In this document: one piece after another, positions 1 to 35,096 of the stretch
Layout of the letters: each line of letters opens with the position of its first letter
Position numbering within the stretch: position 1 is the first letter of the stretch
DNA from: Candidatus Liptonbacteria bacterium
GTDB taxonomy: Bacteria; Patescibacteriota; Minisyncoccia; UBA6257; 2-01-FULL-56-20
Assembly (NCBI GenBank): GCA_023244895.1
Contig: JAHFLL010000001.1
Coordinates: forward strand, 681,802 to 745,801
Length of the DNA stretch: 64,000 bases
Reading direction: 5' to 3'
Made by a program: the position numbers and the translations under genes
Notes under the pieces: model-generated
The model's input: only the letters and a program-made list of their open reading frames with translations
What the model was told of the DNA's origin: nothing
Database searches by the model: none

Positions 1-21
1 GGCAGAAAAACTTTTTCTGCC
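1..21. repeat. Perfect 21-bp hairpin palindrome ggcagaaaaactttttctgcc at the window edge; may be the terminator of an upstream gene outside the window
   Basis: Inverted repeat read directly from the sequence. Confidence 0.4.
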
Positions 22-144
22 TGTTTCTGACGGGACATGACCCTTATCCTAACGATTCTGAGAAGAAAAATAAAGCTCTCTGAACTCCTACCGCCTACAC
101 TCTAAGTTCTAAGCACTAAGTCCTATTTTCTAATTTAAAAACCA

Positions 145-168
145 AAGCCCCCCGCTAAGCGGGGGGCC
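145..168 (-). terminator. GC-rich hairpin (agccccccgctaagcggggggc) just downstream of the stop of the giant minus-strand CDS
   Basis: Stem-loop lies 50 bp past the stop at 220; on the minus strand it is followed by a T-rich tract (plus-strand a-run at 133-143). Confidence 0.55.
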
Positions 169-219
169 AAGGTTTGGCCTGCAATCTTCTCAAGAGATCG
201 CAGAGCTATGTGACTTGTC

Positions 220-3200
220 TTAGGATCCAGACACGTACGAGACGGAGTTGAGGTTGATCGGGGCAACGTTGGTCGGCAGCGAAAGGCTGCTGGTCGGCGT
301 GCCGGATAGACCACCCGTGTATCTCACATCTGTAGCCGCGTTGATGGAAGCTCCCAAGCCCTGAACCACACCGTTCGCACCAGCGAGAGTCTTGGTAGAG
401 TCTACGCGTAGCTTGAAGGAGTATGGCTGACCGGCAGAGATCTGCCAGCCGGCAGTGGTGGTTCCGAACATCCAAGTCTTGGTGCAAGTGTTGGTGCCGT
501 CGCAAGCAGCCGAGGTCGTAGCCGTTACACCAGAGGTGCTGGTTACGTTCACGCCGTTCGCGTCAAGCAAGGTCACACCCGCCAAGAAGGTGGAGATGGA
601 CGGAGCTGTACCGCTGAAGGTTACGGTCAAGGTGTTGAGGTAGGCGTTGTCCGCCGCATCAGCCGTAAAGGTGATGGTGGCGAAGTCGTCCGCAGTCAAC
701 TTGGAGCGGCTAGAAGCCGAACCGATCGCGGCAGAAGAGGCAGTCAGCTTGGTGCGCAATACGGTTAAGGTATTGGCAGTCGCGCCGCCGGAAGCCAGAA
801 CAACCGAGGAAGTAGCGTTAGACGTACTGCCCTTGGCGTTTACGGTTTCCGAGCCCATGTCGTCGTTATCGGTGTCGGTGGAAGTCGCGATCCTGAAGCT
901 GTGTGCGGAGTTATCCGACGCAGCGTTGGAGTTGTAGGTCGCTACATCTCCCTTCAAGATCAAACTGACCGAACCATTCTGAGGGATGGTCAAGTTCACG
1001 CCCGAGAACTTGTAGTAGTAACCAGCACCCGGGTTGGAGCTGGAAGCCGCGGTGTTAGAAGAACCAGCCGTGCCGATCGGGTTAACCAAATCGGTGGACT
1101 TATAGAGCTTCAGATTACCGAAGGAAGGCTTCACAGTTGAGGTCGCAGCTACTACGTCGAAGACGTTCAGGTCGGTGACCTTAATTTCATCCACGTTGGA
1201 AGTCTCCGAAAGCTGGAAGGCAGCCAAGGTGACTCCAGTCGAACCCATTACTACCTGGCCGGTGGCCGGAGTAAGGGAAGAGTTGAGGCCAACTGTTAAG
1301 GTCGCCTGACCAGCTACCGTCACAGCCTGACCAGCGGTGGAGGTGCAAGACACGGCGGTGCCGGTCGAGCCACTGCCAGAGCAGCTGGAAAGAGTGGTGA
1401 TGGTGTTGTTGGTCTGAGAGGTCGCCGAGGACAAAATGTCCGCGTAGACATCCACATAGACGGTCGTACCCTGGGCAACAGTGAACGGAGTACCCGCGAA
1501 GGAGTAGCTACCGTTGTTAGCCAAGGTGGCTTGCGTCTGACCAAACTGAGTGGAACCAATCTTTACCATCAAGTTCTGGAACTGAGCGCCAGCGGCGCCC
1601 ATCAAAACCGTGACGTTAGAGATAGTAACAGACTCCGCGGAAGAGGCAGACAGAGCGTAAGAACCGATCTTGCGCGCCAACGCACCCTTAGCGAAGGTCT
1701 GGGTACCAACTGCGCTGTTCTGAGCTACGGACAATGAAGTCGCGGACAAGGTCAGAGCACTGCCAGTCGCAGAACCGCTTGAGGCGGCTTGGCTGGAAGA
1801 CATGCCCTGCAAGTTGCTGGTATTGCCGGTTAAAGCACCGGTAATAGAGCTGAATGCCGCAGTGGACTGCACGTCACCGACCAAAGACAACACGCGAGTG
1901 GTGTTGGCCGGGACAATGTAGTTGATGTTGGAGCTAGTGTTACCGAAGCAGTTCGAGGCAGTCGAAGTGGCTGCCGAGAAAGCTGTACCGGTACAGGTCG
2001 CAGAGGTGGTCAAGGAGCTTATAGTAGCACCCAACTGACCGCCCGCATCATCCATCATGCGCACATTCTTGATTTCCTGGTCCCAATCTGCACCCAAGGT
2101 GCCGGTCGGAATCAATTGGAAGCCCAAGAACTTTACCTTAACCGCTTCGCCAGCGGCGTAGATGTTGAACTTAGCAAACGTTACATTGGACTGACCCTTC
2201 GCAACATTGCCGGTCGGGGTGTTGGAGGCCAAGGTGACAGTAATCTGTCCCTGGCTGATCGTTACCTGAGTACCGGTGTTGGACTGGGCTCCAATCGGAA
2301 CATTGTACTGAGAGTCAACAGCTAATACATCGTAGGAGTTCAAGATTTCGAACTGGAAGTTATAGCTCGCGGAACCCATAACGTCGGCGTAAACCTGAAC
2401 GTTATTGGAGCCGGTGTTAATCGTTCCAGGGGCCGAAGCCAAATCAAAGTAGGCCGAGCCATCTGCCGCAACCTGCGCCAAGGTAGAACCTACCTGGGTG
2501 CCGTTCACGAATAGCTTGACGTTCTTCAGATCGGACTTGTTGGCCGAACCGATAACCTTGAAGTTGATGCCCTTCAACCACACCTTGGAGTTGCCTCCAG
2601 TGAAGGTCCAGGCACCTACGATTACGTTCTGAGAGCCAGCAGTTACCGAAGTACCAATCGAAGACGAAGCGATGGTTAAGGTCGCGATCGCAGGATTAGA
2701 TACAGTGGTGACTGTCATGGTGTTTCCGTTCAAAGGATAGGAACCGCCAGCGGTGATCGCTGTGCCGGCTACGTCGGTCGCGGAGATATCCGCAGCCGAA
2801 GCAACTCTGAAGGAAATGGTGTTACCCGCGAACAAACCAGTGGCTGGATCTATGGCCAACTCAAAGGTGCGGGTCTGACCGGCGCCGACCGAAAGGCCTA
2901 AGCCGGAGAAGACCAATACGCCACCCGAAAGGGAGTTGTACTGGGCCAATACCTTACCATTTTCGGTCAGGTACGCACCGGAGATAGAACTGTCGGAAAC
3001 AACACCAGCTTTGGTGAACTTGATACCGTTGAAATTCACGGCGCCAGAATTACCAGCGGTTACATTCACGGCCAAAACCGGAATGCGCGCCGCGGAAGTG
3101 GTGCCAGAAATGATAGAACCAGCAACCGGGTTAGAGGCAGCGATGGTCGCTGTCAAACCGGAAGCCGGAACTACTACTGTGCCAGTGCCTGTGCCAGTAC

Positions 3201-3654
3201 CGGTTCCGGTGCCTGTGCCAGTGCCTGTGCCAGTCGAAGTGCCCATCGCCGCGATCTTAGCCCGAGTGATTGCACCAAAGTAGCCGGACGCCGGAGAGAC
3301 TCCGTTCGCCGCTTGCCACTTGGCCAAGGCTGCCTTGGTAGCTGCACCGAAATATTCGGTCTCGTTACCAGGGGAACCAGCACCACTCGCGGATACCTGC
3401 GCGCCATGAGAGTTAAGGAACTGCTGAAGGGCTTTTACTTGCGCTCCCTTCGAACCAAGAGTGAGGTTCATGGTGAAGGAATACGAAGAACCGCCGGTCT
3501 GCGCAGTACCTAACTGCGCCTGCAGTGCCGAAACCTGAGCGAGCAAGGCCGCAATCTGGGCCTGAAGATCAGTGGACGATTGAGCGGATACGCTCGGAAC
3601 TATGGCCAAAACGGTCATAGCGGTAAGCGCTATGGAAACTAATTTTTTGCTCAT
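220..3654 (-). CDS. Giant secreted cell-surface protein (1144 aa). It has an N-terminal signal peptide, a coiled-coil segment, a peptidoglycan-binding-like domain, a (Gly-Thr)n linker, and a long Thr/Ser/Ala/Gly/Val-rich region predicted to be beta-rich. Looks like an S-layer protein or adhesin
   Basis: ORF of 1144 aa; signal peptide MSKKLVSIALTAMTVLAIVPSVSAQS; PG_binding_1-like segment (KGAQVKALQQFLNSHGAQV...GYFGAITRAKI); TGTGTGTGTG linker; low-complexity T/S/G/A-rich body. Confidence 0.85.
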   Translation of the reverse strand: MSKKLVSIALTAMTVLAIVPSVSAQSSTDLQAQIAALLAQVSALQAQLGTAQTGGSSYSFTMNLTLGSKGAQVKALQQFLNSHGAQVSASGAGSPGNETEYFGAATKAALAKWQAANGVSPASGYFGAITRAKIAAMGTSTGTGTGTGTGTGTGTGTGTVVVPASGLTATIAASNPVAGSIISGTTSAARIPVLAVNVTAGNSGAVNFNGIKFTKAGVVSDSSISGAYLTENGKVLAQYNSLSGGVLVFSGLGLSVGAGQTRTFELAIDPATGLFAGNTISFRVASAADISATDVAGTAITAGGSYPLNGNTMTVTTVSNPAIATLTIASSSIGTSVTAGSQNVIVGAWTFTGGNSKVWLKGINFKVIGSANKSDLKNVKLFVNGTQVGSTLAQVAADGSAYFDLASAPGTINTGSNNVQVYADVMGSASYNFQFEILNSYDVLAVDSQYNVPIGAQSNTGTQVTISQGQITVTLASNTPTGNVAKGQSNVTFAKFNIYAAGEAVKVKFLGFQLIPTGTLGADWDQEIKNVRMMDDAGGQLGATISSLTTSATCTGTAFSAATSTASNCFGNTSSNINYIVPANTTRVLSLVGDVQSTAAFSSITGALTGNTSNLQGMSSSQAASSGSATGSALTLSATSLSVAQNSAVGTQTFAKGALARKIGSYALSASSAESVTISNVTVLMGAAGAQFQNLMVKIGSTQFGQTQATLANNGSYSFAGTPFTVAQGTTVYVDVYADILSSATSQTNNTITTLSSCSGSGSTGTAVSCTSTAGQAVTVAGQATLTVGLNSSLTPATGQVVMGSTGVTLAAFQLSETSNVDEIKVTDLNVFDVVAATSTVKPSFGNLKLYKSTDLVNPIGTAGSSNTAASSSNPGAGYYYKFSGVNLTIPQNGSVSLILKGDVATYNSNAASDNSAHSFRIATSTDTDNDDMGSETVNAKGSTSNATSSVVLASGGATANTLTVLRTKLTASSAAIGSASSRSKLTADDFATITFTADAADNAYLNTLTVTFSGTAPSISTFLAGVTLLDANGVNVTSTSGVTATTSAACDGTNTCTKTWMFGTTTAGWQISAGQPYSFKLRVDSTKTLAGANGVVQGLGASINAATDVRYTGGLSGTPTSSLSLPTNVAPINLNSVSYVSGS

Positions 3655-3805
3655 CTTTTACTGAATTACTTACTTTTAATTTCGTTTTAATTTTTTTCTG
3701 GAAGGGTGATTCCGGCGCTATCGACCCGTCTTCTAACCTGTGAGGTTGGTCAGATGGACAGCTGTACGGAGACCCGTAGTAACAATGAAAACCCGGATAA
3801 TAAAA

Positions 3806-3832
3806 AACTCGCTCTGGGAGCGAGGCTTGGTA
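3806..3832 (-). terminator. Rho-independent terminator candidate downstream of the HTH gene
   Basis: Hairpin ctcgctctgggagcgag; on the minus strand it is followed by a T-run. Confidence 0.45.
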
Positions 3833-4044
3833 TACGAATGCCTTAACGAACAGGCACACACGAATAATTCTATTCGTATGGGCGCGTTCGTAGCGCGCTA
3901 TCCGTATGCCAGATTCAGCCTCACTTCCGAATCCGGGCTGGTCCGAAGACCTTAAATTGACAACTGCGATTATACCCTCCTTACCACAAAAAATCAACTC
4001 CTGCAGGGTATAGCGGAAGAGGAAACGGGTAGCCCGTTAAAAGG

Positions 4045-4773
4045 TTACGGCAGGGGGCTAGAAAGCGCCTTTGGACCATTTTCCGGCACGGAAATGACCG
4101 TATCGCGCCTGACTCTGTAATAGGTAGCTGGCCCTCCCCCGCCGATACGCTCTACCTCGCCCGAAACCATCAGCTCCTGTATGTCATAACGCAAAGTCCG
4201 GTCGCTTATGTCCGGCAAGGCCTCTTGGATGTCTCGCAACCGGCAACTGCCCGCCTGCCTTATTTTACTTAGAATTGCCTCTCGACGAACATTGGATTCG
4301 GCACTGTTTTTCTTGGATTCCTTAACCTCCTTAGGCTCCCCATTCTCCTGCTTAGGCTCTTTCGGCAAGACGCTTATCTTTGCCTCTCTGGGTTCCTTTT
4401 GCCGAATTGCCGAATTGCCGAATTGTTTCGGCAATGGCGTAAATATATTGCCGAGTTCAATTGCCGGATTATCCGGCAATATTGCCGAATTCATTGCCGA
4501 ATTAAGATTCTGCAATTCGGCAATAATGAGCTGACTATGATTTTGCCGAATTAAGCCAGATTCGGCAATTATTCTTAAAATATTCTCCAATCCGGCAAGA
4601 TGCTTATTAAAAGAGTCCCTATCTAAGGCGCTTGCCGATTCCATTACGCCTATTGCATGGGAGTATAAAACAGACCTTATTGCCGGATCCTGGTTCGCGG
4701 CAACCCTAAAGACAGCGTAAGCTATTTCGAAACCCTTTTTGCCGAATACCTGTTCTTTGCTTAATTCCGGCAT
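4045..4773 (-). CDS. Transcriptional regulator-like protein with a C-terminal DeoR-type winged-helix HTH. The N-terminal domain is uncharacterized
   Basis: 242 aa; C-terminal segment ILSKIRQAGSCRLRDIQEALPDISDRTLRYDIQELMVSGEVERIG resembles a DeoR/HTH_11 domain; the N-terminal coding DNA is full of GCCGAAT repeats. Confidence 0.6.
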   Translation of the reverse strand: MPELSKEQVFGKKGFEIAYAVFRVAANQDPAIRSVLYSHAIGVMESASALDRDSFNKHLAGLENILRIIAESGLIRQNHSQLIIAELQNLNSAMNSAILPDNPAIELGNIFTPLPKQFGNSAIRQKEPREAKISVLPKEPKQENGEPKEVKESKKNSAESNVRREAILSKIRQAGSCRLRDIQEALPDISDRTLRYDIQELMVSGEVERIGGGGPATYYRVRRDTVISVPENGPKALSSPLP

Positions 4774-4850
4774 TGCCTTAATTCGGCAATACTATCGCAC
4801 AAGCCAAAAAGGAATGCAAGCCGAATTGCCGGATATTCGGCAAGCACCAA
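4395..4850. repeat. Dense cluster of roughly 20 copies of the 9-10-mer ATTGCCGAAT / ATTCGGCAAT in both orientations. It includes three tandem gccgaatt units. The cluster spans the 5' half of the HTH CDS and about 75 bp upstream of it
   Basis: Direct reading, e.g. ttttgccgaattgccgaattgccgaattgtttcggcaatgg; attgccgaattcattgccgaattaagattctgcaattcggcaat; gccgaattgccggatattcggcaag. Confidence 0.8.
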
Positions 4851-4934
4851 GTTCCAAATACCAAACTCCAAACAAATCCCTCCGACAGGAGCGGGTTGAT
4901 GCTTGTTTGTTATTTGGTGCTTGGGATTTGGGAT

Positions 4935-5726
4935 TTACGCAATTTTATTGCGTTGCATGTATTCCTCCGCCTCCTTTAACCCCTCTAAAGTCCCGCAGTC
5001 CAAACGATGTCCGTCAAATTCCCAGCCATAGACATAATTCCCCTTTTTAAACTCCATATCTATGCCGGAATAAACCGGCAGGGCATCCGCCGCGTGCGCC
5101 ATATTCAAAGATGCCTCTTTTAAGTTTTTCAGAATCTCCGGACCCAAAACATATCCACCTATCACATAGAGTTCGGAGGGAACCTGCGCGAGAGGCGGCT
5201 TTTCTATAATATTTGAAATCTGATAAACGTCCGGTTCGCCCAAAACAGGCTCGGCAACTACCACGCCGTAACGCACTATTACCTCCTTCGGTCCGCGCGC
5301 CAGAAGCACGGCGGAACGATCTTTTTTTTCATACAATTCTATGAGGCGCGTAAGAGTCGGCTGACCGCCAAGAATTATGTCGTCGCAAAATCTCATTAGA
5401 AAGGGCTCCTCCCCTATTAAGTCTTCCGCCTGTAAAATCGCGTGGCCATGACCCAACGGTTCGGCCTGGACGCGAATATGGAATTTCAACTTGGGATATT
5501 CTCTTCCAGCTTCTTCAATATACTCCTCGTAAGCACCTTGGTGCTGGGGACTAACGATCAAAACAACTTCCTCAAGCTCGGTCTTTTTAATCTCGTCCAG
5601 AATATAGGAGACTATCGGCCGACCCGCGAGCGGAATCAGGTTTTTAGGGGTGGTAAGCGTAAGCGGCATCAAGCGCTTGCCTATCCCCGCTACCGGTAAA
5701 ATTATTTTGCGTACCTTGTGGCTCAT
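4935..5726 (-). CDS. Sugar-1-phosphate nucleotidyltransferase, most similar to UTP--glucose-1-phosphate uridylyltransferase (GalU-like)
   Basis: N-terminal motif KIILPVAGIGKRLMPLTLTTPKNLIPLAG (G-x-G-x-R-x-P-x-T-K); length 263 aa. Confidence 0.7.
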   Translation of the reverse strand: MSHKVRKIILPVAGIGKRLMPLTLTTPKNLIPLAGRPIVSYILDEIKKTELEEVVLIVSPQHQGAYEEYIEEAGREYPKLKFHIRVQAEPLGHGHAILQAEDLIGEEPFLMRFCDDIILGGQPTLTRLIELYEKKDRSAVLLARGPKEVIVRYGVVVAEPVLGEPDVYQISNIIEKPPLAQVPSELYVIGGYVLGPEILKNLKEASLNMAHAADALPVYSGIDMEFKKGNYVYGWEFDGHRLDCGTLEGLKEAEEYMQRNKIA

Positions 5727-24409: not shown

Positions 24410-24997
24410 TTAGCGTCTTAAAATTATCCTGGGTATCGACTCCAAGTTAATAAATTTGTCCACCGCTTCCTGCAATTTGGAAGAAGTACTGCGGTGAAAC
24501 CCAGCCACCTCCACTCTGCGTCCGCGGCCATGCTTCAAATATTCCACGAGTGGTATGTAATCTCCGTCTCCAGTTACAAGTATAATAACGTCCAGAAAAT
24601 CACACATACGGATGGCGTCTACCGCCAAGCCCACATCCCAATCTCCTTTCTTTAGGCCATCGCCGTAAACCTGCAGGTCTTTAACCCGCAATTCCAATCC
24701 GGATTTCTCCAGAGCGTCAAAGAAAGCGCTTTCGGTAGAGAGCCCCTTTTGGCGCTGATTTACAACCTGCTCTAGGGGATGTACAGAGGCCTCCACTCCT
24801 TCGCTTTTGATAACGTAAGCCATAGCACGAATAAGCTGGCGGGGGCCAACCAAGTGCTTCATCATCTCCGCGTAGTTAACCCGGCCATGGTAGATGTTCT
24901 TGGCGGAATGATACAGATTGGAAACGTCCACAAATATACCAACTCTCTGATTGGGCAGATAGTCGGATTGTGGGCGCACTTTACGTTCGGGAATCAT
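24410..24997 (-). CDS. NYN-domain (LabA-like) predicted ribonuclease
   Basis: GIFVDVSNLYH...ILVTGDGDYIPLVEYLKHGRRVEVAGF matches the NYN/LabA motif pattern. Confidence 0.7.
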   Translation of the reverse strand: MIPERKVRPQSDYLPNQRVGIFVDVSNLYHSAKNIYHGRVNYAEMMKHLVGPRQLIRAMAYVIKSEGVEASVHPLEQVVNQRQKGLSTESAFFDALEKSGLELRVKDLQVYGDGLKKGDWDVGLAVDAIRMCDFLDVIILVTGDGDYIPLVEYLKHGRGRRVEVAGFHRSTSSKLQEAVDKFINLESIPRIILRR

Positions 24998-25397: not shown

Positions 25398-25438
25398 TTA
25401 TCCACGAGAATAGACGATCGTCTTTTTTTGTGGATAAA
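25398..25438. promoter_or_regulatory. Imperfect palindrome: two inverted DnaA-box-like 9-mers (TTATCCACG and TTATCCACA) flank a perfect 12-bp core agacgatcgtct. Its left half is related to the palindrome at 26843
   Basis: ttatccacgagaatagacgatcgtctttttttgtggataa. Confidence 0.5.
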
Positions 25439-25506
25439 TTGGCCCTGGTCTATTAATCTTTAGAAACGACTGTGGCCGGGGTGCGCTGATGCACCTCGGC
25501 CACGGA

Positions 25507-25770
25507 CTAGTCCCCTGGAGAGCGGGACCATGTGTCCCAAGCTGACGAGAAGAGCATCACGCCAGCCACGAGCAGACCCGCGACGCAGATACCCTTCGTC
25601 GGGGCAAGGGGCACGAGCAACCACGAGGCGGCCGCGAAGACCAGCCTCCAGGCAGCCTTCTTCGGGGTCGGAACCTTCGGCCTCATTATCCCTCCGAGGG
25701 AGCCCGCTTCGGCAGTCGCCCATGCGAAGGCTCCTACCGTTCCCAACAGCACCAACTCGCAAACCATCAT
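25507..25770 (-). CDS. GC-rich orphan small membrane protein (87 aa, 2-3 TM helices)
   Basis: Hydrophobic ORF in a roughly 330-bp high-GC segment, bounded by AT-rich spacers and a hairpin at 25471-25502. Confidence 0.45.
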   Translation of the reverse strand: MMVCELVLLGTVGAFAWATAEAGSLGGIMRPKVPTPKKAAWRLVFAAASWLLVPLAPTKGICVAGLLVAGVMLFSSAWDTWSRSPGD

Positions 25771-25886
25771 GTCTGACCTCCTTTTTTAATTATAACATAT
25801 TATCCATACATTGGCAAATACAACCAAGATTGGCAATAGAAACATTAATAATGTACATATCTGTCGCAAAATAAAATTGTGGTAGA

Positions 25887-26804
25887 ATGGGGTTAATGTC
25901 TAATCTGAAGGAGCTGGTACAAGATTATCTGAACTACCTGGAGATAGAAAAGGGGCGCTCCCCTCGCACCCGCGAGAACTACGAGCACTATCTCGCGGAC
26001 TTTATGGCCTACGCCAAAATCTCCTCCCCCAAAGACATTACCGACCGCCTGGTGCGCGAATATCGCTTGAATCTCGCACGGCGGGATATCAAAAAAATCA
26101 GCCAGAACTACTACACCATCGCTCTGCGCAACTTTCTAAAATATCTGGCACGGCGGGACGTTGTCTCTCTCCAGCCGGATAAAATTGAGCTGGCGAAAGT
26201 TTCCCGCGCGCAAATAGAAATATTGGAATATCAGGATTTAGAAAGGCTGCTCCAGGCGCCCCAGGGCGGAGACTTGCGCTCTCTGCGGGATAAGGCGATT
26301 TTGGAAATGCTTTTTTCAACCGGCCTGCGCTTGGCGGAACTGTGCTCTCTGGAGCGATATCTGAATTTGGAGCGGGGAGAATTTACGGTGCGGGGCAAGG
26401 GCGATAAGTTGCGGGTGGTTTTCTTATCCGACCGCGCCAAAAAAGCTATTAAGCAATACCTGGACAAGCGCACCGACGCGGAGCCGTATCTCTTCGTGAG
26501 TCTTTCTAAAATTGCCAAGGGCTCCAAAAAGGAGCCGAAGGTGCTGGGCAGAATAACCCCCCGGGCGGTGGAGCGGGCGGTGGAGCACTGGTCCAAGGTG
26601 GCGGGCATTCCCAAGCATATTCATCCCCACCAGCTACGACACAGCTTCGCGACCGATCTTTTAATGAACGGGGCGGACCTACGCTCCGTGCAAGAGCTCC
26701 TGGGTCATGCCAATATTTCTACTACTCAAATCTACACCCATCTAACCAACAAGGAACTTAAAGAGATCCACGAGGCCTTCCATGGCCAAAGGAGGAAGAA
26801 GTAA
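25887..26804 (+). CDS. Tyrosine site-specific recombinase of the XerC/XerD family
   Basis: C-terminal catalytic region HQLRHSFATDLLMNGADLRSVQELLGHANISTTQIYTH (R...H-x-x-R...Y); N-terminal SAM-like domain; extended -10 tgtggtagaat upstream. Confidence 0.9.
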   Translation: MGLMSNLKELVQDYLNYLEIEKGRSPRTRENYEHYLADFMAYAKISSPKDITDRLVREYRLNLARRDIKKISQNYYTIALRNFLKYLARRDVVSLQPDKIELAKVSRAQIEILEYQDLERLLQAPQGGDLRSLRDKAILEMLFSTGLRLAELCSLERYLNLERGEFTVRGKGDKLRVVFLSDRAKKAIKQYLDKRTDAEPYLFVSLSKIAKGSKKEPKVLGRITPRAVERAVEHWSKVAGIPKHIHPHQLRHSFATDLLMNGADLRSVQELLGHANISTTQIYTHLTNKELKEIHEAFHGQRRKK

Positions 26805-29618: not shown

Positions 29619-31145
29619 CTACAGATTTTTTACGGTTTGTATCAAGCCTGCAATTGAGTTTTTTAACTCAATATCCGTATAATTAAAACTCTGCATCGTT
29701 TTATTTTCAGGATGATGCGTTTTATTTCTTATGAATGTTGGCAAGGTAACATCTATTTCTCCCTGGGACACTCCTCCGTACTCGGGATTCCACTTTTTAG
29801 TGGCTGCTATTTTTGTTTGTAAATAATCCTTCTCAAACACGGTTTGCTTACCCCTGCTATCGGCATCTGATTGATCAGTGGCCTTACTGATGAAAAGTTC
29901 GTGCAAATAACCATATAGCTCATCGTGAAATTCTATCGTGGGCATATCGTAAGCAAAATAATTAATTTCTCCCCAAGATGGGCTCCAAGAAGGGAAAAGC
30001 CCCCATCCTTTAGATCTTGCATCCTCAATCTTGATCTTATTATTCACGTCTCTAGTAAATAGCAGGAGCGTGGCATTCTGGGAAATGGCGCCCTTAAACA
30101 AATAGGGTGAGTGGGTAGAAACAATTATTTGTTTACTTTTCGATTCTTCAAGTAATAACTCCAACAGCTTTTCTTGTGCTTTGGGGTGAAGATGTAGTTC
30201 TGGTTCGTCAATTAAATAAACAATGCTGCCTTTTGAAGCTCCTGCTATGTTTTTTAGTATCAAAAGAGTCAATATTATCTCTACGCCAGAACCTAAATCC
30301 CTGACATTAATTTGAGACAAGGTATTTTCATCTCGTAAAGCGAAAAAGGCCGCGGAGAAAGGATGTAGAATATTTAAAAGTTCAATTTTAATTTTCTCAA
30401 ATTCGTCTTTTCCAAAAAACTCTTTTAACTCTTTAGTGGTCTTTTGGCTAAAACTCTTATTTGCAATCGCATCAACATTTTTAAAATATTCCCCTGCAAT
30501 ATTCTGAGAAATCATATTTATATTCTCATCTGTTAAATTCTTAACAAATGTCCAATTCAGATCATCACAGATTTTTTCGAAAGTTGTTTTATAGTTTCCA
30601 GTAGTAATTTGTCTTGTCCTATTTTTATCGAAAAAGAATATATTCAGTTCGTCGCTATCGTTGATTCTCGATTTGGAAAATATTTTATCTCTCCCATCAA
30701 TCTCTTTCCCCTGCGAACCATCTCCTTTTATATAATTGGCTTCTGTAATAAAGGAGTTATTTATTTGAAAAGGACTAGATAACAAATTTCCTCTTTCCTT
30801 GGTATCCCTACTCTTGGCCTTAAAAGAAACGCCCTTTGCTTTAAAACTCCAATCCTTATAAAAATCAATTCCCGAACCACAACCGAACTCATCACTCTCA
30901 GCTTCGACAAGTATCTCTTTTTTGAAATCAAAGAAATCGTTAATGCTTAATTTATTTTCCGCGGAAAAACTATTAAGCGTGAGATAATTAACTGCTTCAA
31001 GGACAGTAGTTTTTCCATTTCCATTCTCTCCAATGAGAATATTTAGACCGCTTCCACGATTTCCATTTGGAACATTAAAACTAATCGGTTCATTTTCAAA
31101 ACATCTATAGTTTTGAATCTTTAATTTTTTTATGAATATGGCCAT
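29619..31145 (-). CDS. AAA_21/AAA_15-type ABC-like ATPase. It has an OLD/RecF-like N-terminal ATPase head and a C-terminal roughly 150-aa domain of unknown type. Candidate defence ATPase
   Basis: N-terminus IKKLKIQNYRCF; Walker A motif GENGNGKTT; Walker B / D-loop motif VYLIDEPELHLHP...STHSPYLF; gene sits in an AT-rich island. Confidence 0.75.
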   Translation of the reverse strand: MAIFIKKLKIQNYRCFENEPISFNVPNGNRGSGLNILIGENGNGKTTVLEAVNYLTLNSFSAENKLSINDFFDFKKEILVEAESDEFGCGSGIDFYKDWSFKAKGVSFKAKSRDTKERGNLLSSPFQINNSFITEANYIKGDGSQGKEIDGRDKIFSKSRINDSDELNIFFFDKNRTRQITTGNYKTTFEKICDDLNWTFVKNLTDENINMISQNIAGEYFKNVDAIANKSFSQKTTKELKEFFGKDEFEKIKIELLNILHPFSAAFFALRDENTLSQINVRDLGSGVEIILTLLILKNIAGASKGSIVYLIDEPELHLHPKAQEKLLELLLEESKSKQIIVSTHSPYLFKGAISQNATLLLFTRDVNNKIKIEDARSKGWGLFPSWSPSWGEINYFAYDMPTIEFHDELYGYLHELFISKATDQSDADSRGKQTVFEKDYLQTKIAATKKWNPEYGGVSQGEIDVTLPTFIRNKTHHPENKTMQSFNYTDIELKNSIAGLIQTVKNL

Positions 31146-31165
31146 GCATTTAAATAAATTGCAAG

Positions 31166-31663
31166 CTATTTAGCCATTTCGCATTTACCAGAAGATACTA
31201 TCGCTCCCGTTCCGAGTGTCGCGATATCAACAAATTCTCCTTTATCGCCTAAGGCATCTCCAGTGACAACCTTGAACATCATTGCTTGACCTTGCAATGG
31301 AGTAAATTGTGTAAATTCTCCAGAAATGTGTACCTCAACTGGATATGAATCACATCCTTTAGTATCACACCTAAAATAGGTTCCGCTCTCAGTTCCATAA
31401 TCTACGAAATAATAAGTTGCTGGAGTTGAAGCCGTACAACTACCCCCACCACAATCAAACCGACTTGTCGGAAAACAAGAAAGCTCGGCGATATCTGCCA
31501 TTGCGGAATGTTGTGAGGATTCTTCATATGCGATCCTCAATGACTCGGTGGGCGGGATGATTACAGTTGTCGTTTGAACCTTTTCTTTATTTCCAAAAGC
31601 AATATAGGAAAAAATACCCAATAGAATTACAAGCATGCCAATAATTAAATTTTTCTTTTCCAT
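31166..31663 (-). CDS. Small exported Cys-rich protein (165 aa; N-terminal TM or signal sequence, 8 Cys)
   Basis: N-terminus MEKKNLIIGMLVILLGIFSYIAFG; downstream domain with CFPTSRFDCGGGSC...CDTKGCDS...GKCE. Confidence 0.55.
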   Translation of the reverse strand: MEKKNLIIGMLVILLGIFSYIAFGNKEKVQTTTVIIPPTESLRIAYEESSQHSAMADIAELSCFPTSRFDCGGGSCTASTPATYYFVDYGTESGTYFRCDTKGCDSYPVEVHISGEFTQFTPLQGQAMMFKVVTGDALGDKGEFVDIATLGTGAIVSSGKCEMAK

Positions 31664-31907
31664 ATGTTTGAAAATGTCCTTATTTACTTGGGTTCGAACT
31701 TGGAAATCTGGCGGAGAGGAAGGACGCTAAGCTATTCGAACGCACTCCAGTTCCTATTGTAGCCCCGCCGGATTGTTTGGCAAATATGGGGTCATTAAGG
31801 ATTATAGCCCTCTTTCGCTTTTCTAGTTTATGTAGCAATAAATTGTATCCTTTGCGTGAACCTTTTTGAGACGAACTGACACGCCCGGACATAATTTTCT
31901 GCGACGA

Positions 31908-34900
31908 TTATTCTAATTTCAACATCTCCTTTATCTCTAGCACGCACCGCGCCAAATCGTTTTGGAGTTGGTACACCCAAAATCGTTTGACTCGCCATCC
32001 GTGCATGATGAGATGCTGGTCTCGCTTCAAATCCGACAGTAAGCGGCCTCCGTCAATGTCGCGATGCCACATCTCACCGTCAATCTCAATATCAATCGGG
32101 ATTTCCGAATCAAGGACGGCGAGATCAAGGCGATATTGATATAGCGGGTACTGCGAGACGGTTCTGATACCTTCCCGCGCGAGGGCGTCATACAAAACTT
32201 CCTCCCATGGTGACTCAAATTTTCCTCCACTCTTGTTTTTGTTTTCCGGCTCCAGCTCCTCGACATACTGCACGAACTCTGAAAGGTGCGAGATGCCGGA
32301 TTGGGCGCAAGCTACCCTGTCGCCGACAATGTGCAACTCCGCCCTTGCACGGGTAATCGCGACATTAAACAGGTTTACCGTGCTCCCTAAAAATCCTAGT
32401 GAGCGTTGTTGAATTTTACGCGACACAACCGGAGAGAAAATCATTATGTCGCGTTCGTCTCCTTGATATTTATGCGCGGTATCAACCGTAAAATCCAGCT
32501 TCCGCAACTCCGCCGCGTCTATTTTTTGTTCTACCAAATCTCTGATTTTATTCGCTTGCTCTCGAAACGGCGTAACGACGCCAAGTGATACAGAGTAGTC
32601 GTCGCCGTGGGCGGAAATCCTGCCGATGATTTCTCCAATCAATACAACAATCGCCTTCGCCTCTTCCAGATTGTATGCGCTTCCGGCAGATGGCCGGACA
32701 ACCTCACCGACGACATTGTGCCATGTGAGAGCGTCGGGGTGTCCCGCACCGCGCAATCTACGATAATCCGTCCAGACGCTCAACTTGCCACCATAAAATT
32801 TCTTATTGGAAAAACCGATAATTTCGGCGCGGCTGCGGTAGTGTTCGAGCAAGTGAATGAATTTTGCCCCGGTTCCCACAACGCTTCGTGCAAGCTCAAA
32901 GAGCGAGTTTATGCTGTAAAGAAAACGTTGGTCGTCGGTTGAGGTTAGACTAATCTGCCGTTGTAACTGTTGATCGTCCACCCGATGCAAAAGCGAGATG
33001 TGCGTAAGCTGATTTGGATCGCCAACAATAACGGCTCGTTTCGCGCGATAAAGTAGTGGAATCGCGGACGCGATGTCGCACTGGGAGGCTTCATCAATAA
33101 TCACAACATCAACGGCTCCTGCGCTCAACGGAAGCGCATGACGGACAGATAGATTTGTAACTGCCATCGCCGGAAACGCTTTTACTACGCTCTTAAACAT
33201 TCTCTTGCGCTCATTTCTCAGTTCCTCCGCGAGCTCACCTCCTGTTACGTCGCCCTCCAGTCGGCGCACGATACTCACATAATCCGCAATATCGCGTCGT
33301 TCCTTGGGGCCGAGCGATTTTAAGCGACGTTTCATTAGCGCATCAACATATCTAACGCTAATGTCTATCGCGCGTTCTTTACTTTTTGTGATTCGCTCCC
33401 GTAAAACCTCTACTCGCGCTTCATTCTCGTTCTCTCGCACAATTCCCAAAAGCTCCGATTGATTATCAATCCATTTTTTTAATGCACGGCAAATCGTCAA
33501 AAGCTCGCGACAGGCATGGATAGAATTAAGCGAGAGGGGGATATCTTCAATCGGCGCAAGCGCGAGTAAAGATTTTGCCGTTTCTAAAACTCGCTTTTCC
33601 AGCGTGGAACCAAAAAACGCGAGAATGCGCGAGATAAAACTAGGCCCTTCGTCAACTTCTTTTACCAAACGACTCAACGAAATAAGAGAGGCATAAAACT
33701 CCTGTTTCCCCTCGATTTTTTGGTACGAATCGAGATTGCGAGAAATTGACGAGGGCAATTCCGCTCTAACAGATTCAAGCGTGACATCAAGACGACTTAT
33801 TCGATTCCTGCGGGCAAGGATGCGGAACAGCGATTGCTGTGCCTCTTTTTCTTCTGAGCGCACTAATTCAAGTTCCTTTTTGTACTCGCTGATTTCTCGC
33901 TCTAATGACTGGTTGTTGTAGCTTGAGGCACGTTCAATCGCCGACAAGAGCGCTTCCGCAAATTCAATCTCGCGTTCTTTCTGTCCGTATTTCAGAATGA
34001 CCGGCTCGGACTGAAGCCTCAATAATCGTTCGATAACAACATCAACCGCTTTGTGATTTTTACTTCCGAACAAGACGCTTTCATTACGAAGTAGTGCGTT
34101 AGCAATAATATTGAGAACAATTTGCGACTTTCCGGTTCCGGGCGGGCCGGTAATGACGCTAACCGTGTTGTTAAAAGCACTTTTTACCGCGCCTCGCTGT
34201 TCGTCATTCAATCCGGTTATTTCCAGCAATCCTTCACCATTATCCTCTTTAACTTCTGCGTTTCTATCAAGAATTACGCGCCATACATCATTAGGAACGG
34301 TCGTGTCTCGTAATTCGCTCAATTCTTGTTCTAGCCCACCAGTATATTTTGAATCTGCGCTCCGAAAAATAACGCCGAGAGGGAAAACGCCGCTCTCTGC
34401 TTTTAGTTCCGTTGTCTTTCCGCCAAGAATATCTTTTGAGAACGGAACCTCTTGTGGTAGAAGTTCGGCGAACGCACCCAAAATAATTTTGAGGTTCTGC
34501 CCCCTGTTTTTTTCATCGTCCCACGACTCTAAAACTGCTTCGGCTATTTGCTTTCTTTCCTCAACGCTCGTTAATAAACTTTTGTCTGTAAGAAAAGCAG
34601 AGTTGATTCTCGGTCTATCCGATTGCAAAATGAAAGCGTATCCGGTTTCTGTTTGAATAAGATCTATTCCAAAAATTAGAATGGGTTGAATGATCTGACC
34701 CGACCATCCTCGCCGCGATTGTCCAATTTGTTTTATGTGGCAAGGAAAGCCGTAGAAATACGAAAGCGGACTGCGACTCCATCGGGGACCACTGATGAAC
34801 GCTTGGATTTTTTCATTCTGCCCCTCAAATTCTAGCTTTTCTTTGCCGGACGCAATCCATTCTTTTTTCATCGTAGGCACCTGTAAAAACTCCACCCCCT

Positions 34901-35096
34901 CTTTTGACGAGTAGAGCGTAATTTCTCCGGCGTTCTCAACAGAAATGCACGAACCGTAATACTTGAGAAGTTTTTGCCAGCGCAAAGATGTCGGGTCGGT
35001 ATGAACCACCGGAGCTTCGTTTTCCGTTTTTCGCGCGATTGTCGTTCGCCTATATCCGCTCCGACCTCTGTATTTGTTGCGATAGTAGATTGCCAT
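31908..35096 (-). CDS. Large SF1 (Upf1/DNA2-like, AAA_11+AAA_12) helicase. It has an uncharacterized N-terminal domain of about 300 aa and a C-terminal DUF559/Vsr-like PD-(D/E)xK nuclease domain
   Basis: Motif I GPPGTGKSQ; motif II VIIDEASQ; VGDPNQL; YRSRAEIIGFSN; motifs V/VI VDTAHKYQGDERDIMIF; C-terminal RLDLAVLDSEIPIDIEIDGEMWH (DUF559-like). Confidence 0.8.
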   Translation of the reverse strand: MAIYYRNKYRGRSGYRRTTIARKTENEAPVVHTDPTSLRWQKLLKYYGSCISVENAGEITLYSSKEGVEFLQVPTMKKEWIASGKEKLEFEGQNEKIQAFISGPRWSRSPLSYFYGFPCHIKQIGQSRRGWSGQIIQPILIFGIDLIQTETGYAFILQSDRPRINSAFLTDKSLLTSVEERKQIAEAVLESWDDEKNRGQNLKIILGAFAELLPQEVPFSKDILGGKTTELKAESGVFPLGVIFRSADSKYTGGLEQELSELRDTTVPNDVWRVILDRNAEVKEDNGEGLLEITGLNDEQRGAVKSAFNNTVSVITGPPGTGKSQIVLNIIANALLRNESVLFGSKNHKAVDVVIERLLRLQSEPVILKYGQKEREIEFAEALLSAIERASSYNNQSLEREISEYKKELELVRSEEKEAQQSLFRILARRNRISRLDVTLESVRAELPSSISRNLDSYQKIEGKQEFYASLISLSRLVKEVDEGPSFISRILAFFGSTLEKRVLETAKSLLALAPIEDIPLSLNSIHACRELLTICRALKKWIDNQSELLGIVRENENEARVEVLRERITKSKERAIDISVRYVDALMKRRLKSLGPKERRDIADYVSIVRRLEGDVTGGELAEELRNERKRMFKSVVKAFPAMAVTNLSVRHALPLSAGAVDVVIIDEASQCDIASAIPLLYRAKRAVIVGDPNQLTHISLLHRVDDQQLQRQISLTSTDDQRFLYSINSLFELARSVVGTGAKFIHLLEHYRSRAEIIGFSNKKFYGGKLSVWTDYRRLRGAGHPDALTWHNVVGEVVRPSAGSAYNLEEAKAIVVLIGEIIGRISAHGDDYSVSLGVVTPFREQANKIRDLVEQKIDAAELRKLDFTVDTAHKYQGDERDIMIFSPVVSRKIQQRSLGFLGSTVNLFNVAITRARAELHIVGDRVACAQSGISHLSEFVQYVEELEPENKNKSGGKFESPWEEVLYDALAREGIRTVSQYPLYQYRLDLAVLDSEIPIDIEIDGEMWHRDIDGGRLLSDLKRDQHLIMHGWRVKRFWVYQLQNDLARCVLEIKEMLKLE

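Follow-up and report, generated by a model that had tools for sequence, protein, structure and literature searches.

A dense array of TTGCCG sites overprinted on a DeoR-type helix-turn-helix gene of Candidatus Liptonbacteria: a candidate multi-operator autoregulatory element

A stretch of 64,000 nucleotides from a Candidatus Liptonbacteria genome, that of an ultra-small bacterium of the Paceibacteria (contig JAHFLL010000001.1, positions 681,802 to 745,801; hereafter the window) contains a gene for a 242-residue protein with a DeoR-type helix-turn-helix (HTH) domain, whose promoter and coding sequence are crowded with copies of a short motif. The copies most likely form a cluster of about 20 short recognition sites in double-stranded DNA, with the consensus aTTGCCGnATt, for which the product of the gene itself is the likeliest binder. 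We are highly confident that the motif is an element selected at the DNA level and tied to this HTH gene family. Because codon choice and a recurrent palindrome both show selection on the DNA, the gene carries two superimposed messages, an operator and a protein. As to function, we consider it probable that the sites form a multi-operator array through which the encoded protein, as the presumed binder, regulates its own gene; the proposal is made because two tandem copies of the site fill the spacer between the -35 and -10 boxes of the gene's own promoter in many loci. Among the possibilities listed in a preliminary description of this DNA was an array of binding sites, the encoded HTH protein being the example given of a binder. 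Conservation at the DNA level, the arrangement in cis and the sites in the core promoter make it the one that we favour. The features are collected in Table 1.

In the window the exact motif TTGCCGNAT occurs 19 times, 16 of them within 4399-4843, against a chance expectation of 2.7. Allowing up to one mismatch to ATTGCCGAAT gave 24 matches, 19 of which lie within 4296-4844 (shuffles: mean 6.5, maximum 15), and the form TTGCCGRA is found 18 times in 4250-4860 (29.5/kb) and 12 times in the remaining 63 kb (0.19/kb). The motif is enriched at this locus, and the array that had been described at 4395-4850 is real. It covers the promoter and the 5' two-thirds of the 242-aa gene (4045-4773, minus strand), where the G+C content is about 48%, and its copies stand in both orientations and include a triple tandem with an 8-bp period at 4399-4423. 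Three of the 19 copies precede the ATG (4781-4790, 4825-4834 and 4835-4844) and the others lie within the coding sequence. Most copies are intragenic, as had been stated, the fraction being about five-sixths and not the two-thirds first given. Translated in three frames the motif yields the peptides NSAM/NSAI/NPAI, IIAES/IIAEL and FGNSAIRQ, in agreement with the earlier remark that it imposes recurring peptides such as NSAI. All of these peptides come from the dense block at 4398-4569, which holds the codons for helix 4 and for the beginning of the linker and whose cores (TTGCCG, or CGGCAA in the opposite orientation) are kept in relatives at 70-93% identity. The copies in 4590-4747 are likewise all conserved across five distinct close relatives (offsets 29, 88, 136 and 175). 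The region at 4212-4368, in the part for the linker and the HTH, is the densest family-wide (21.7 cores/kb), and the lineage of the window has lost most of its copies there. No second cluster is present in the window, and the three intergenic cores outside the array are unclustered, which indicates no other targets within these 64 kb.

Shuffling synonymous codons within genes predicted 165 ± 11 cores, whereas 715 were observed, with an excess in the bundle, the linker and the HTH part each. For the HTH gene of the window alone, 20 cores compare with 3.5 ± 1.6 after synonymous shuffling (z = 10). The 28 other genes of the window served as a control and contain 34 cores against 30.5 expected, which disposes of the generic oligonucleotide bias that had been considered as an explanation. 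Among five distinct relatives (70-93% identity) most cores are retained in place, and the share of invariant third codon positions is 68% in cores vs 19% outside them (odds ratio 9, Fisher p = 3e-9). The peptide RQxGNCR, present in 39 divergent loci, is encoded with CGG in 36/39, CAA in 39/39, GGC in 35/39, AAT in 39/39 and TGC in 39/39; jointly these codons spell CGGCAAnnnGGCAATTGCCG. A 12-bp palindrome, CGGCAATTGCCG, is found in 41 of 65 loci and in two copies in 340 kb outside the arrays. In the HTH it is translated as G-N-C-R; at the end of the bundle a different frame is used and gives (S/A)-A-I-A-(E/G). Where sites overlap codons, the operator would dictate the linker peptides (NSAI, FGNSAIRQ) and fix codon choice in the structured parts.

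The same arrangement extends through the family. A scan that took one genome per species gave 149 relatives, from which 80 loci were retrieved; by annotation the homologues belong to Candidatus Liptonbacteria and other Parcubacteria/Paceibacteria. Even where protein identity is as low as 29-38%, the homologous gene and its surroundings contain arrays of the same core. Counted over 65 non-redundant Paceibacteria loci, the density of cores is 7.0/kb in the 400 bp upstream of the gene, 10.4/kb in the part encoding the N-terminal domain, 17.1/kb in the linker and 21.7/kb in the HTH part, compared with 1.0/kb in the first 300 bp past the stop codon and about 1.7/kb in the far flanks (1.0-1.75/kb for the flanks overall). 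Gene and promoter are 4-20 times denser than the flanks, the boundary at the HTH stop codon is sharp, with background density right after it, and eight or more cores are present in 58/65 loci. The consensus aTTGCCGnATt was derived from 1088 sites, and its variable n position tracks the G+C content of the genome (Spearman rho 0.59). Sites concentrate at three positions, namely the final 50 nt ahead of the start codon, the end of the bundle and the beginning of the winged HTH; the first of these has 26 cores/kb, 69 of 84 in the orientation of the window copy TATTGCCGAATT. In locus L072 (~2900-3000, upstream of the gene), two promoter-spacer copies use TTGCAGGAT and not TTGCCGGAT (ccttgcaaTTGCAGgaTTGCAGgattataat) while the HTH is unchanged, which suggests that the fifth core position may tolerate C to A.

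In many members of the family the promoter region consists of cTTGCAA (or TTGACT), TTGCCGnaTTGCCGgat, TATAAT (or TATGCT), 7-9 nt and the ATG, with a 17-nt spacer. Its strict form, cTTGCAA-TTGCCGgaTTGCCGgat-TATAAT, in which two tandem copies exactly fill the spacer between the -35 and -10 boxes, is present in 15/65 loci, and in 38/65 a copy adjoins a -10-like element. A third copy often stands between the -10 box and the start codon, which in these cases would be close enough to the -10 box for a leaderless transcript. The putative promoter of the window gene falls below the listing level of the consensus scan and was assigned from the sequence by analogy with the family promoter. Its lineage has a layout that differs from that of the family but appears to be equivalent: the copy at 4781-4790 is invariant in all six close relatives (offset -16), the inverted pair at 4825-4844 abuts the -35 box, and at the position of this pair L002 and L090 carry another, analogous palindrome, ATTGCCGAGTTGCTAGCAACTCGGCAAT. 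In the window as in the loci with a filled spacer, sites overlap or abut the gene's own core promoter, and such positions are those of classical repressor operators.

Pfam assigns HTH_DeoR (PF08220) to residues 163-213 of the protein (E 6e-7; score 29.6 bits, cut-off 21) and returned, besides this, just a weak match to HxlR. The recognition region, S(E/D)RT(L/I)RYD(L/I)Q, is nearly invariant among homologues. An AlphaFold2 model based on 17 homologues predicts that the remainder folds into a four-helix bundle followed by a disordered linker. No relatives of the bundle sequence were detected in Pfam or the PDB, and on this model the non-HTH domain is specific to the family. Foldseek gave weak matches of the bundle to the pentameric four-helix-bundle proteins 2gsc and 2rld (E ~0.02), and of the winged HTH to MarR, PerR, PadR and AspA (E ~0.03 for AspA, a centromere-binding protein). 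The sugar-phosphate sensor and oligomerization domain of DeoR proteins, DeoRC (PF00455), had no Pfam match at E<=1, and the NCBIfam DeoR/GlpR/AgaR equivalogs scored 15-20 bits, over the HTH portion only, against cut-offs of 260-351. An exhaustive profile search collected 505 clusters (50% identity) at E<=1e-30, all of 200-300 aa. Together with the intact open reading frame and the confident AlphaFold2 domains, this contradicts the idea, raised in the preliminary description, that the gene might be a pseudogene built from decayed repeats.

We take the encoded protein to be the binder because its association with the sites is strictly in cis, because both its recognition region and TTGCCG are nearly invariant, and because of the placement of sites in the promoter. 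One site has approximately the size of a single winged-HTH footprint, in which TTGCCG would occupy the major groove and the A/T flank would receive the wing. The four-helix bundle probably oligomerizes, with each winged HTH tethered to it through the flexible linker of ~55 residues. The free orientation and spacing of the sites (8-bp tandems, abutting palindromes, 10-30 bp gaps) would fit such independently tethered heads better than a rigid dimer; a several-headed regulator of this kind, serving sites of arbitrary spacing and orientation through a flexible linker, would be a compact route to avidity. Protein bound at the sites inside or beside the core promoter would keep RNA polymerase out, presumably resulting in negative autoregulation. 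The intragenic copies may provide avidity, looping or a higher-order complex, and could also block elongation.

Several observations weigh against simple autoregulation. Two to three operators suffice for ordinary autorepression, so that a set of 15-30 selected copies suggests some further role that is unexplained. Loci L060, L066 and L078 keep the HTH with just 3-4 cores, and these array-poor loci retain the same recognition helix. Covariation of site variants with HTH residues was not found, the sole variable site position being the one that tracks G+C. Oligomerization of the bundle finds no support beyond weak fold similarity (2gsc, 2rld), and sequence homology is absent. Finally, the binder probably has one or more targets beyond its own gene, because the same tandem signature recurs in a second, intergenic context: in 10/120 loci, a YraN/UPF0102 gene is adjoined by a cluster of 3-13 cores, accompanied in some of these loci by a free-standing gene for a LAGLIDADG endonuclease or by one for a DksA/TraR-like zinc-finger protein. 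There is no YraN gene in the 64-kb window. The metagenome scan was made with the tandem signature TTGCCGNNTTGCCGNATTAT and found 26 loci with the family gene; 81/123 of its hits were isolated chance matches in unrelated coding sequence. The regions of the YraN context carry lineage-specific GTTT...AAAC palindromes, and L126 has two perfect parS sites (2113-2128 and 3376-3391), one of them ~100 bp from its array. Some further hits were pure microsatellites of the same 8-mer as in the array, seen in L205 (11629-11745, TTCGGCAA x12), L141 (200-530, 16-bp units) and L152 (3000-3030). These contigs have a GC content of 0.38-0.59, no sign of the HTH family and do not look like members of the candidate phyla radiation (CPR); the microsatellites are probably unrelated slippage products and indicate that the 8-mer can expand alone.

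Other functions were weighed against autoregulation. A gene for a giant secreted protein lies 300-550 bp downstream of the HTH gene, on the same strand, in 63/70 loci, and the pairing persists even where the upstream neighbours differ. The array could be an upstream control platform for this gene (enhancer-like, insulating or topological), with autoregulation secondary, that tunes the strong promoter ~50 bp past the HTH stop codon or blocks read-through into the giant gene. The partnership does suggest a regulatory output there. A regulator whose sole dense target is its own gene needs some output, and across the family the density of sites climbs toward the 3' end of the HTH gene, nearest the giant promoter. 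Yet the promoter and 5' leader of the giant gene are devoid of sites (1.0 cores/kb, equal to background). The array ends ahead of this promoter, the nearest core in the window being ~220 bp upstream, and conservation is highest at positions in the promoter of the HTH gene itself; we regard a control platform as unlikely. A chromosomal centromere-like or organizing site, that is, a high-density landing pad for segregation, anchoring or domain organization, is a little less likely still. It would be modelled on parC/ParR, the heptads of the omega protein and tubC/TubR, where the centromere also autoregulates its operon. A partition NTPase is linked to the array in no locus, the protein has neither a ParB nor a ribbon-helix-helix (RHH) fold, and the coordinate of the array is inconsistent across five complete genomes. 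The lack of a ParB or RHH fold, together with the absence from the window of any parS within 3 mismatches and of any ParA/ParM/TubZ-type neighbour, also leaves the parS-like partition site proposed earlier without support. What invites the comparison is that sites of 8-10 bp stand in both orientations with tandem periods of 7-8 bp, like the 7-bp omega heptads, in the sole cluster of the 64 kb; that the weak fold matches include the centromere-binding winged HTH of AspA; and that the array of L126 in the second context lies ~100 bp from a perfect parS. However, plain repression explains the placement in promoter spacers, and the parS link comes from one contig. We would give slightly more credit, while still considering it unlikely, to the broader proposal that the array is the landing pad for a large nucleoprotein body, either as a new centromere-like or organizing element of Paceibacteria or as an enhancer or insulator of the giant gene, which encodes the dominant surface protein of the cell. 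The protein would be multivalent, with an oligomeric bundle and tethered winged HTH, and would possibly act together with parS and the second arrays near yraN. Were this true, the protein that binds the element would contain it in its own coding sequence.

It is as doubtful as a centromere that the sites are bound by a different protein encoded elsewhere, the HTH gene being the most heavily regulated target of that protein. The tie between site and protein is not direct, and the same signature is found by YraN and DksA/TraR-like genes with no family gene in the sequenced DNA examined. However, the association with the HTH family is strict and ancient (58/65 loci) and overprints the most conserved peptide of the family; sites in cis at a DNA-binding gene are most simply its own, and no other DNA-binding gene is a conserved neighbour across the syntenic loci examined. 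A role at the RNA level, with inverted copies folding the mRNA into hairpins for stability, translation or protein binding, is very unlikely, since copies occupy the untranscribed -35/-10 spacer. The sense RNA of 4380-4860 does fold below its shuffles (-162 kcal/mol, z = -5.2), because four consecutive convergent pairs, with potential stems of 9-12 bp, happen to be adjacent in the window. Across the family, neighbouring sites are mostly direct repeats (500 pairs, 129 with an 8-bp and 56 with a 7-bp period) as against 81 convergent pairs, and there are 58 abutting divergent pairs. The convergent spacing is broad, and complementarity at the variable position is not significant (35/79 vs 31 expected, P = 0.05). 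Rfam gave no match above threshold, and the microRNA-like matches below it are due to the inverted repeats. An iteron-type replication origin inside an initiator gene, as in RepA_N plasmids, has a striking parallel in pSK41 Rep with its intragenic Rep boxes (PMC5703833), but is extremely unlikely here. The locus is chromosomal, with conserved housekeeping synteny (clpB, htrA-like) that includes complete 0.8-0.9-Mb genomes, and neither viral contigs nor plasmids yielded relatives of the gene. RepA_N (PF06970) has no match at E<=1 and there is no other Rep domain. The array has neither DnaA boxes nor an AT-rich stretch, TTATCCACA is absent from the window at 0-15 kb within 1 mismatch, and the change in GC skew around 4 kb falls at the giant gene, whose composition is odd. 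The replication-control element of the preliminary description thus finds no support. Least credible of all is a neutral or mutational by-product, arising by slippage of an 8-bp unit in a tolerant linker or consisting of repeats that drive recombination or phase variation. Tandem 8-mers do occur in a disordered linker of variable length, and pure microsatellites of the same 8-mer are known from unrelated contigs (L205, L141). Against this, copies are dispersed, in both orientations, through structured domains and non-coding promoter DNA, and synonymous sites are under purifying selection. Nor did the recombinational variation of the gene, which had been suggested, find support: six relatives (70-93% identity) agree both in the number of copies and in where they lie, as seen in the window, L002/L003, L090 and L001, all open reading frames are intact, and the triple tandem keeps frame. 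The traits of a contingency locus (copy-number variation, frameshifts) were not seen among the close relatives.

Multi-operator autoregulation, which we favour, can be compared with known systems. pSK41 Rep has a winged HTH, tetramerizes and binds Rep boxes in the middle of its own gene, where the DNA codes for a linker that is dispensable and poorly conserved (PMC5703833). The likeness to RepA_N proteins (pSK41 Rep, pAD1 RepA) is that of a winged HTH and an oligomerization domain, the latter presumed for the present protein, combined with repeated sites inside the linker-coding part of its own gene; here, 14 copies lie in the block that encodes helix 4 and the linker (4398-4569), and the family linker has 17 cores/kb. 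RepA_N proteins are plasmid initiators with an N-terminal PF06970 domain and a primase-binding C-terminal domain, whereas the present gene is chromosomal and its DeoR-type winged HTH is C-terminal. There are ~20 sites here as against 4, the promoter is also occupied and nothing indicates an origin. The RepA_N initiators are the closest formal analogue, and the present protein resembles their design without being a member. The 7-bp heptads of the omega protein are needed in at least four contiguous copies and form an array that is bound cooperatively and represses the promoter of its own operon (PMC9499535). With omega (pSM19035), ParR/parC (R1, pSK41) and TubR/tubC the present array shares many short sites, direct and inverted, at the promoter of its own operon. 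The centromere arrays of ParR and TubR are made of contiguous short sites, are bound cooperatively and repress their own operon. These arrays are intergenic, and their binders either are of the RHH type (omega, ParR) or come from a plasmid system in which a motor gene is adjacent. Here, by contrast, no motor gene (ParA, ParM, TubZ) is linked in the syntenic loci, the fold is a bundle with a winged HTH, and the sites are mostly intragenic.

Escherichia coli DeoR binds three operators and loops DNA as an octamer; in the lac system O2 lies in lacZ and O3 at the end of lacI, and in gal one operator, OI, lies in galE. These systems, too, combine a promoter operator with distant, in part intragenic, operators, and the DeoR-type HTH is common to DeoR and the present protein. 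They have 2-3 operators vs 15-30 here, and their auxiliary operators do not shape the protein sequence of the repressor. In canonical DeoR the HTH is N-terminal and is followed by DeoRC, whereas here the order is reversed, with a C-terminal HTH, and DeoRC is absent. Multi-operator looping with intragenic operators, as in DeoR, lac and gal, would be the nearest regulatory precedent. A recognition site embedded in the gene of its binder is seen in spo0J/parB of Bacillus subtilis and many bacteria, which contains a parS site, a single 16-bp palindrome (TGTTNCACGTGAAACA). The likeness is confined to a DNA-binding protein having its site within its own gene: at up to 3 mismatches the window has no copy of TGTTNCACGTGAAACA, and the encoded protein is no ParB. 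In the literature searched (motif, Patescibacteria regulators), no published description of the gene family or of the motif was found. A dense autoregulatory operator array overprinted on its own coding sequence would represent a known kind of system, in which the exceptional density is new.

Almost nothing is known of gene regulation in the CPR/Patescibacteria, which cannot be grown alone. The array and its gene offer a concrete, testable pair of cis-element and regulator, present in at least 149 species-level genomes and 505 protein clusters, and the pair adjoins the gene for a giant surface protein, a probable mediator of host contact. As a natural example of dense double coding it is also unusually clear, with a DNA-binding site that constrains codons, dictates linker peptides and is read in two frames. 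That the two frames are used in two conserved parts of one protein makes it useful for studying the co-evolution of regulatory and protein codes.

Table 1. Features of the HTH locus in the window and of related clusters at other loci
Feature	Position	Strand	Description
HTH gene	4045-4773	-	Intact open reading frame, 242 aa; HTH_DeoR match, AlphaFold2 domains, homologues at 93-29% identity
N-terminal four-helix bundle	4486-4758	-	aa 6-96; AlphaFold2, predicted local distance difference test (pLDDT) >90
Disordered linker	4309-4479	-	aa 99-155; AlphaFold2
C-terminal DeoR-type winged HTH	4111-4302	-	aa 158-221; AlphaFold2, pLDDT 87-90
Weaker or degenerate copies	4212-4368		Cores at ~4212, 4240 (GTTGCCGG, encodes S-C-R), 4298 and 4362; linker and HTH coding part
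Dense intragenic block	4398-4569	both	14 copies of (A/T)TTGCCG(A/G)AT, including the triple tandem at 4399-4423
Scattered intragenic copies	4590-4747		4590-4598, 4633-4638 (core only), 4679-4688, 4738-4747; encode helices 1-3 of the bundle
Promoter-proximal copy TATTGCCGAATT	4781-4790		Immediately 3' of the putative -10 box and 8-17 nt ahead of the ATG, covering the likely transcription start
Putative HTH-gene promoter	4791-4819	-	-35 TTGCAT (4819-4814), 17-nt spacer, extended -10 TGcGATAGT (hexamer 4796-4791)
Inverted pair ATTGCCGGAT/ATTCGGCAAG	4825-4844		Abuts the putative -35 box
Sigma-70-like promoter of the giant gene	3969-3997	-	TTGATT-17-TATAAT, 48 nt past the HTH stop codon
Giant surface-protein gene	220-3654	-	1144 aa; signal peptide, DLQAQIA coiled segment, long Ser/Thr/Ala/Gly-rich repeats
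YraN-context clusters (other loci)	L175 2051-2196; L148 77-175; L129 4763-4873; L126 2231-2285; L147 6426-6482		Also in L170, L180, L181, L123 and L198

The other neighbours of the HTH gene place it in a chromosomal context. They encode a nucleoside triphosphate (NTP) transferase, an unannotated 244-aa protein, ClpB and an htrA-like protease, and the upstream order of clpB, the 244-aa protein and the NTP transferase holds among the closer relatives, some relatives of the gene being located on complete 0.8-0.9-Mb chromosomes. Between the NTP-transferase gene and the HTH promoter, on the minus strand, the window has a long imperfect hairpin of ~95 nt (4840-4940; -31.7 kcal/mol, z = -2.6), which may be a terminator or an insulator of the upstream operon.

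Relatives of the giant protein carry a PG_binding_1 domain, and the -35 box of the giant-gene promoter is conserved in close relatives (GTTGATTTTT). In the window, the giant protein includes a perfect run of Thr-Gly dipeptides (TGTGTGTGTGTGTGTGTGTGTG, ~3130-3210), which reads as (Pro-Val)n on the opposite strand, and the positive GC skew over 1-4000 stems from the odd composition of this gene. A DnaA-box-like 9-mer, TT(A/T/G)TCCACA, always in sense orientation, was seen at the -35 region of the giant-gene promoter in 33/64 loci, 10-130 nt past the HTH stop codon (for example L056, L016, L022, L045 and L009); it is absent from 3655-4044 of the window. The perfect form TTATCCACA occurs 13 times in 38 kb vs once in 292 kb of far flanks. 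The 9-mer could mark a DnaA-controlled promoter or be a lineage-specific promoter element.

Two further regions of the window drew attention. Three DnaA-box-like 9-mers, one of them perfect (25429-25437), lie at 25398-25808 in a divergent intergenic region of ~890 bp. A replication origin at 25.4 kb was considered and rejected: the cluster is flanked by genes for an NYN-domain protein (24410-24997) and a XerC/D-type integrase (25887-26804), is without dnaA/dnaN and shows no inversion of GC skew. At 29619-35096, the genes for an AAA_15/AAA_21 (AbiEii-like) ATPase and for a superfamily-1 helicase of 1062 aa, which has a REase_MTES_1575 domain, are situated in and beside a stretch of low G+C content (36.8% in 30001-32000), and this region may represent an acquired defence island.

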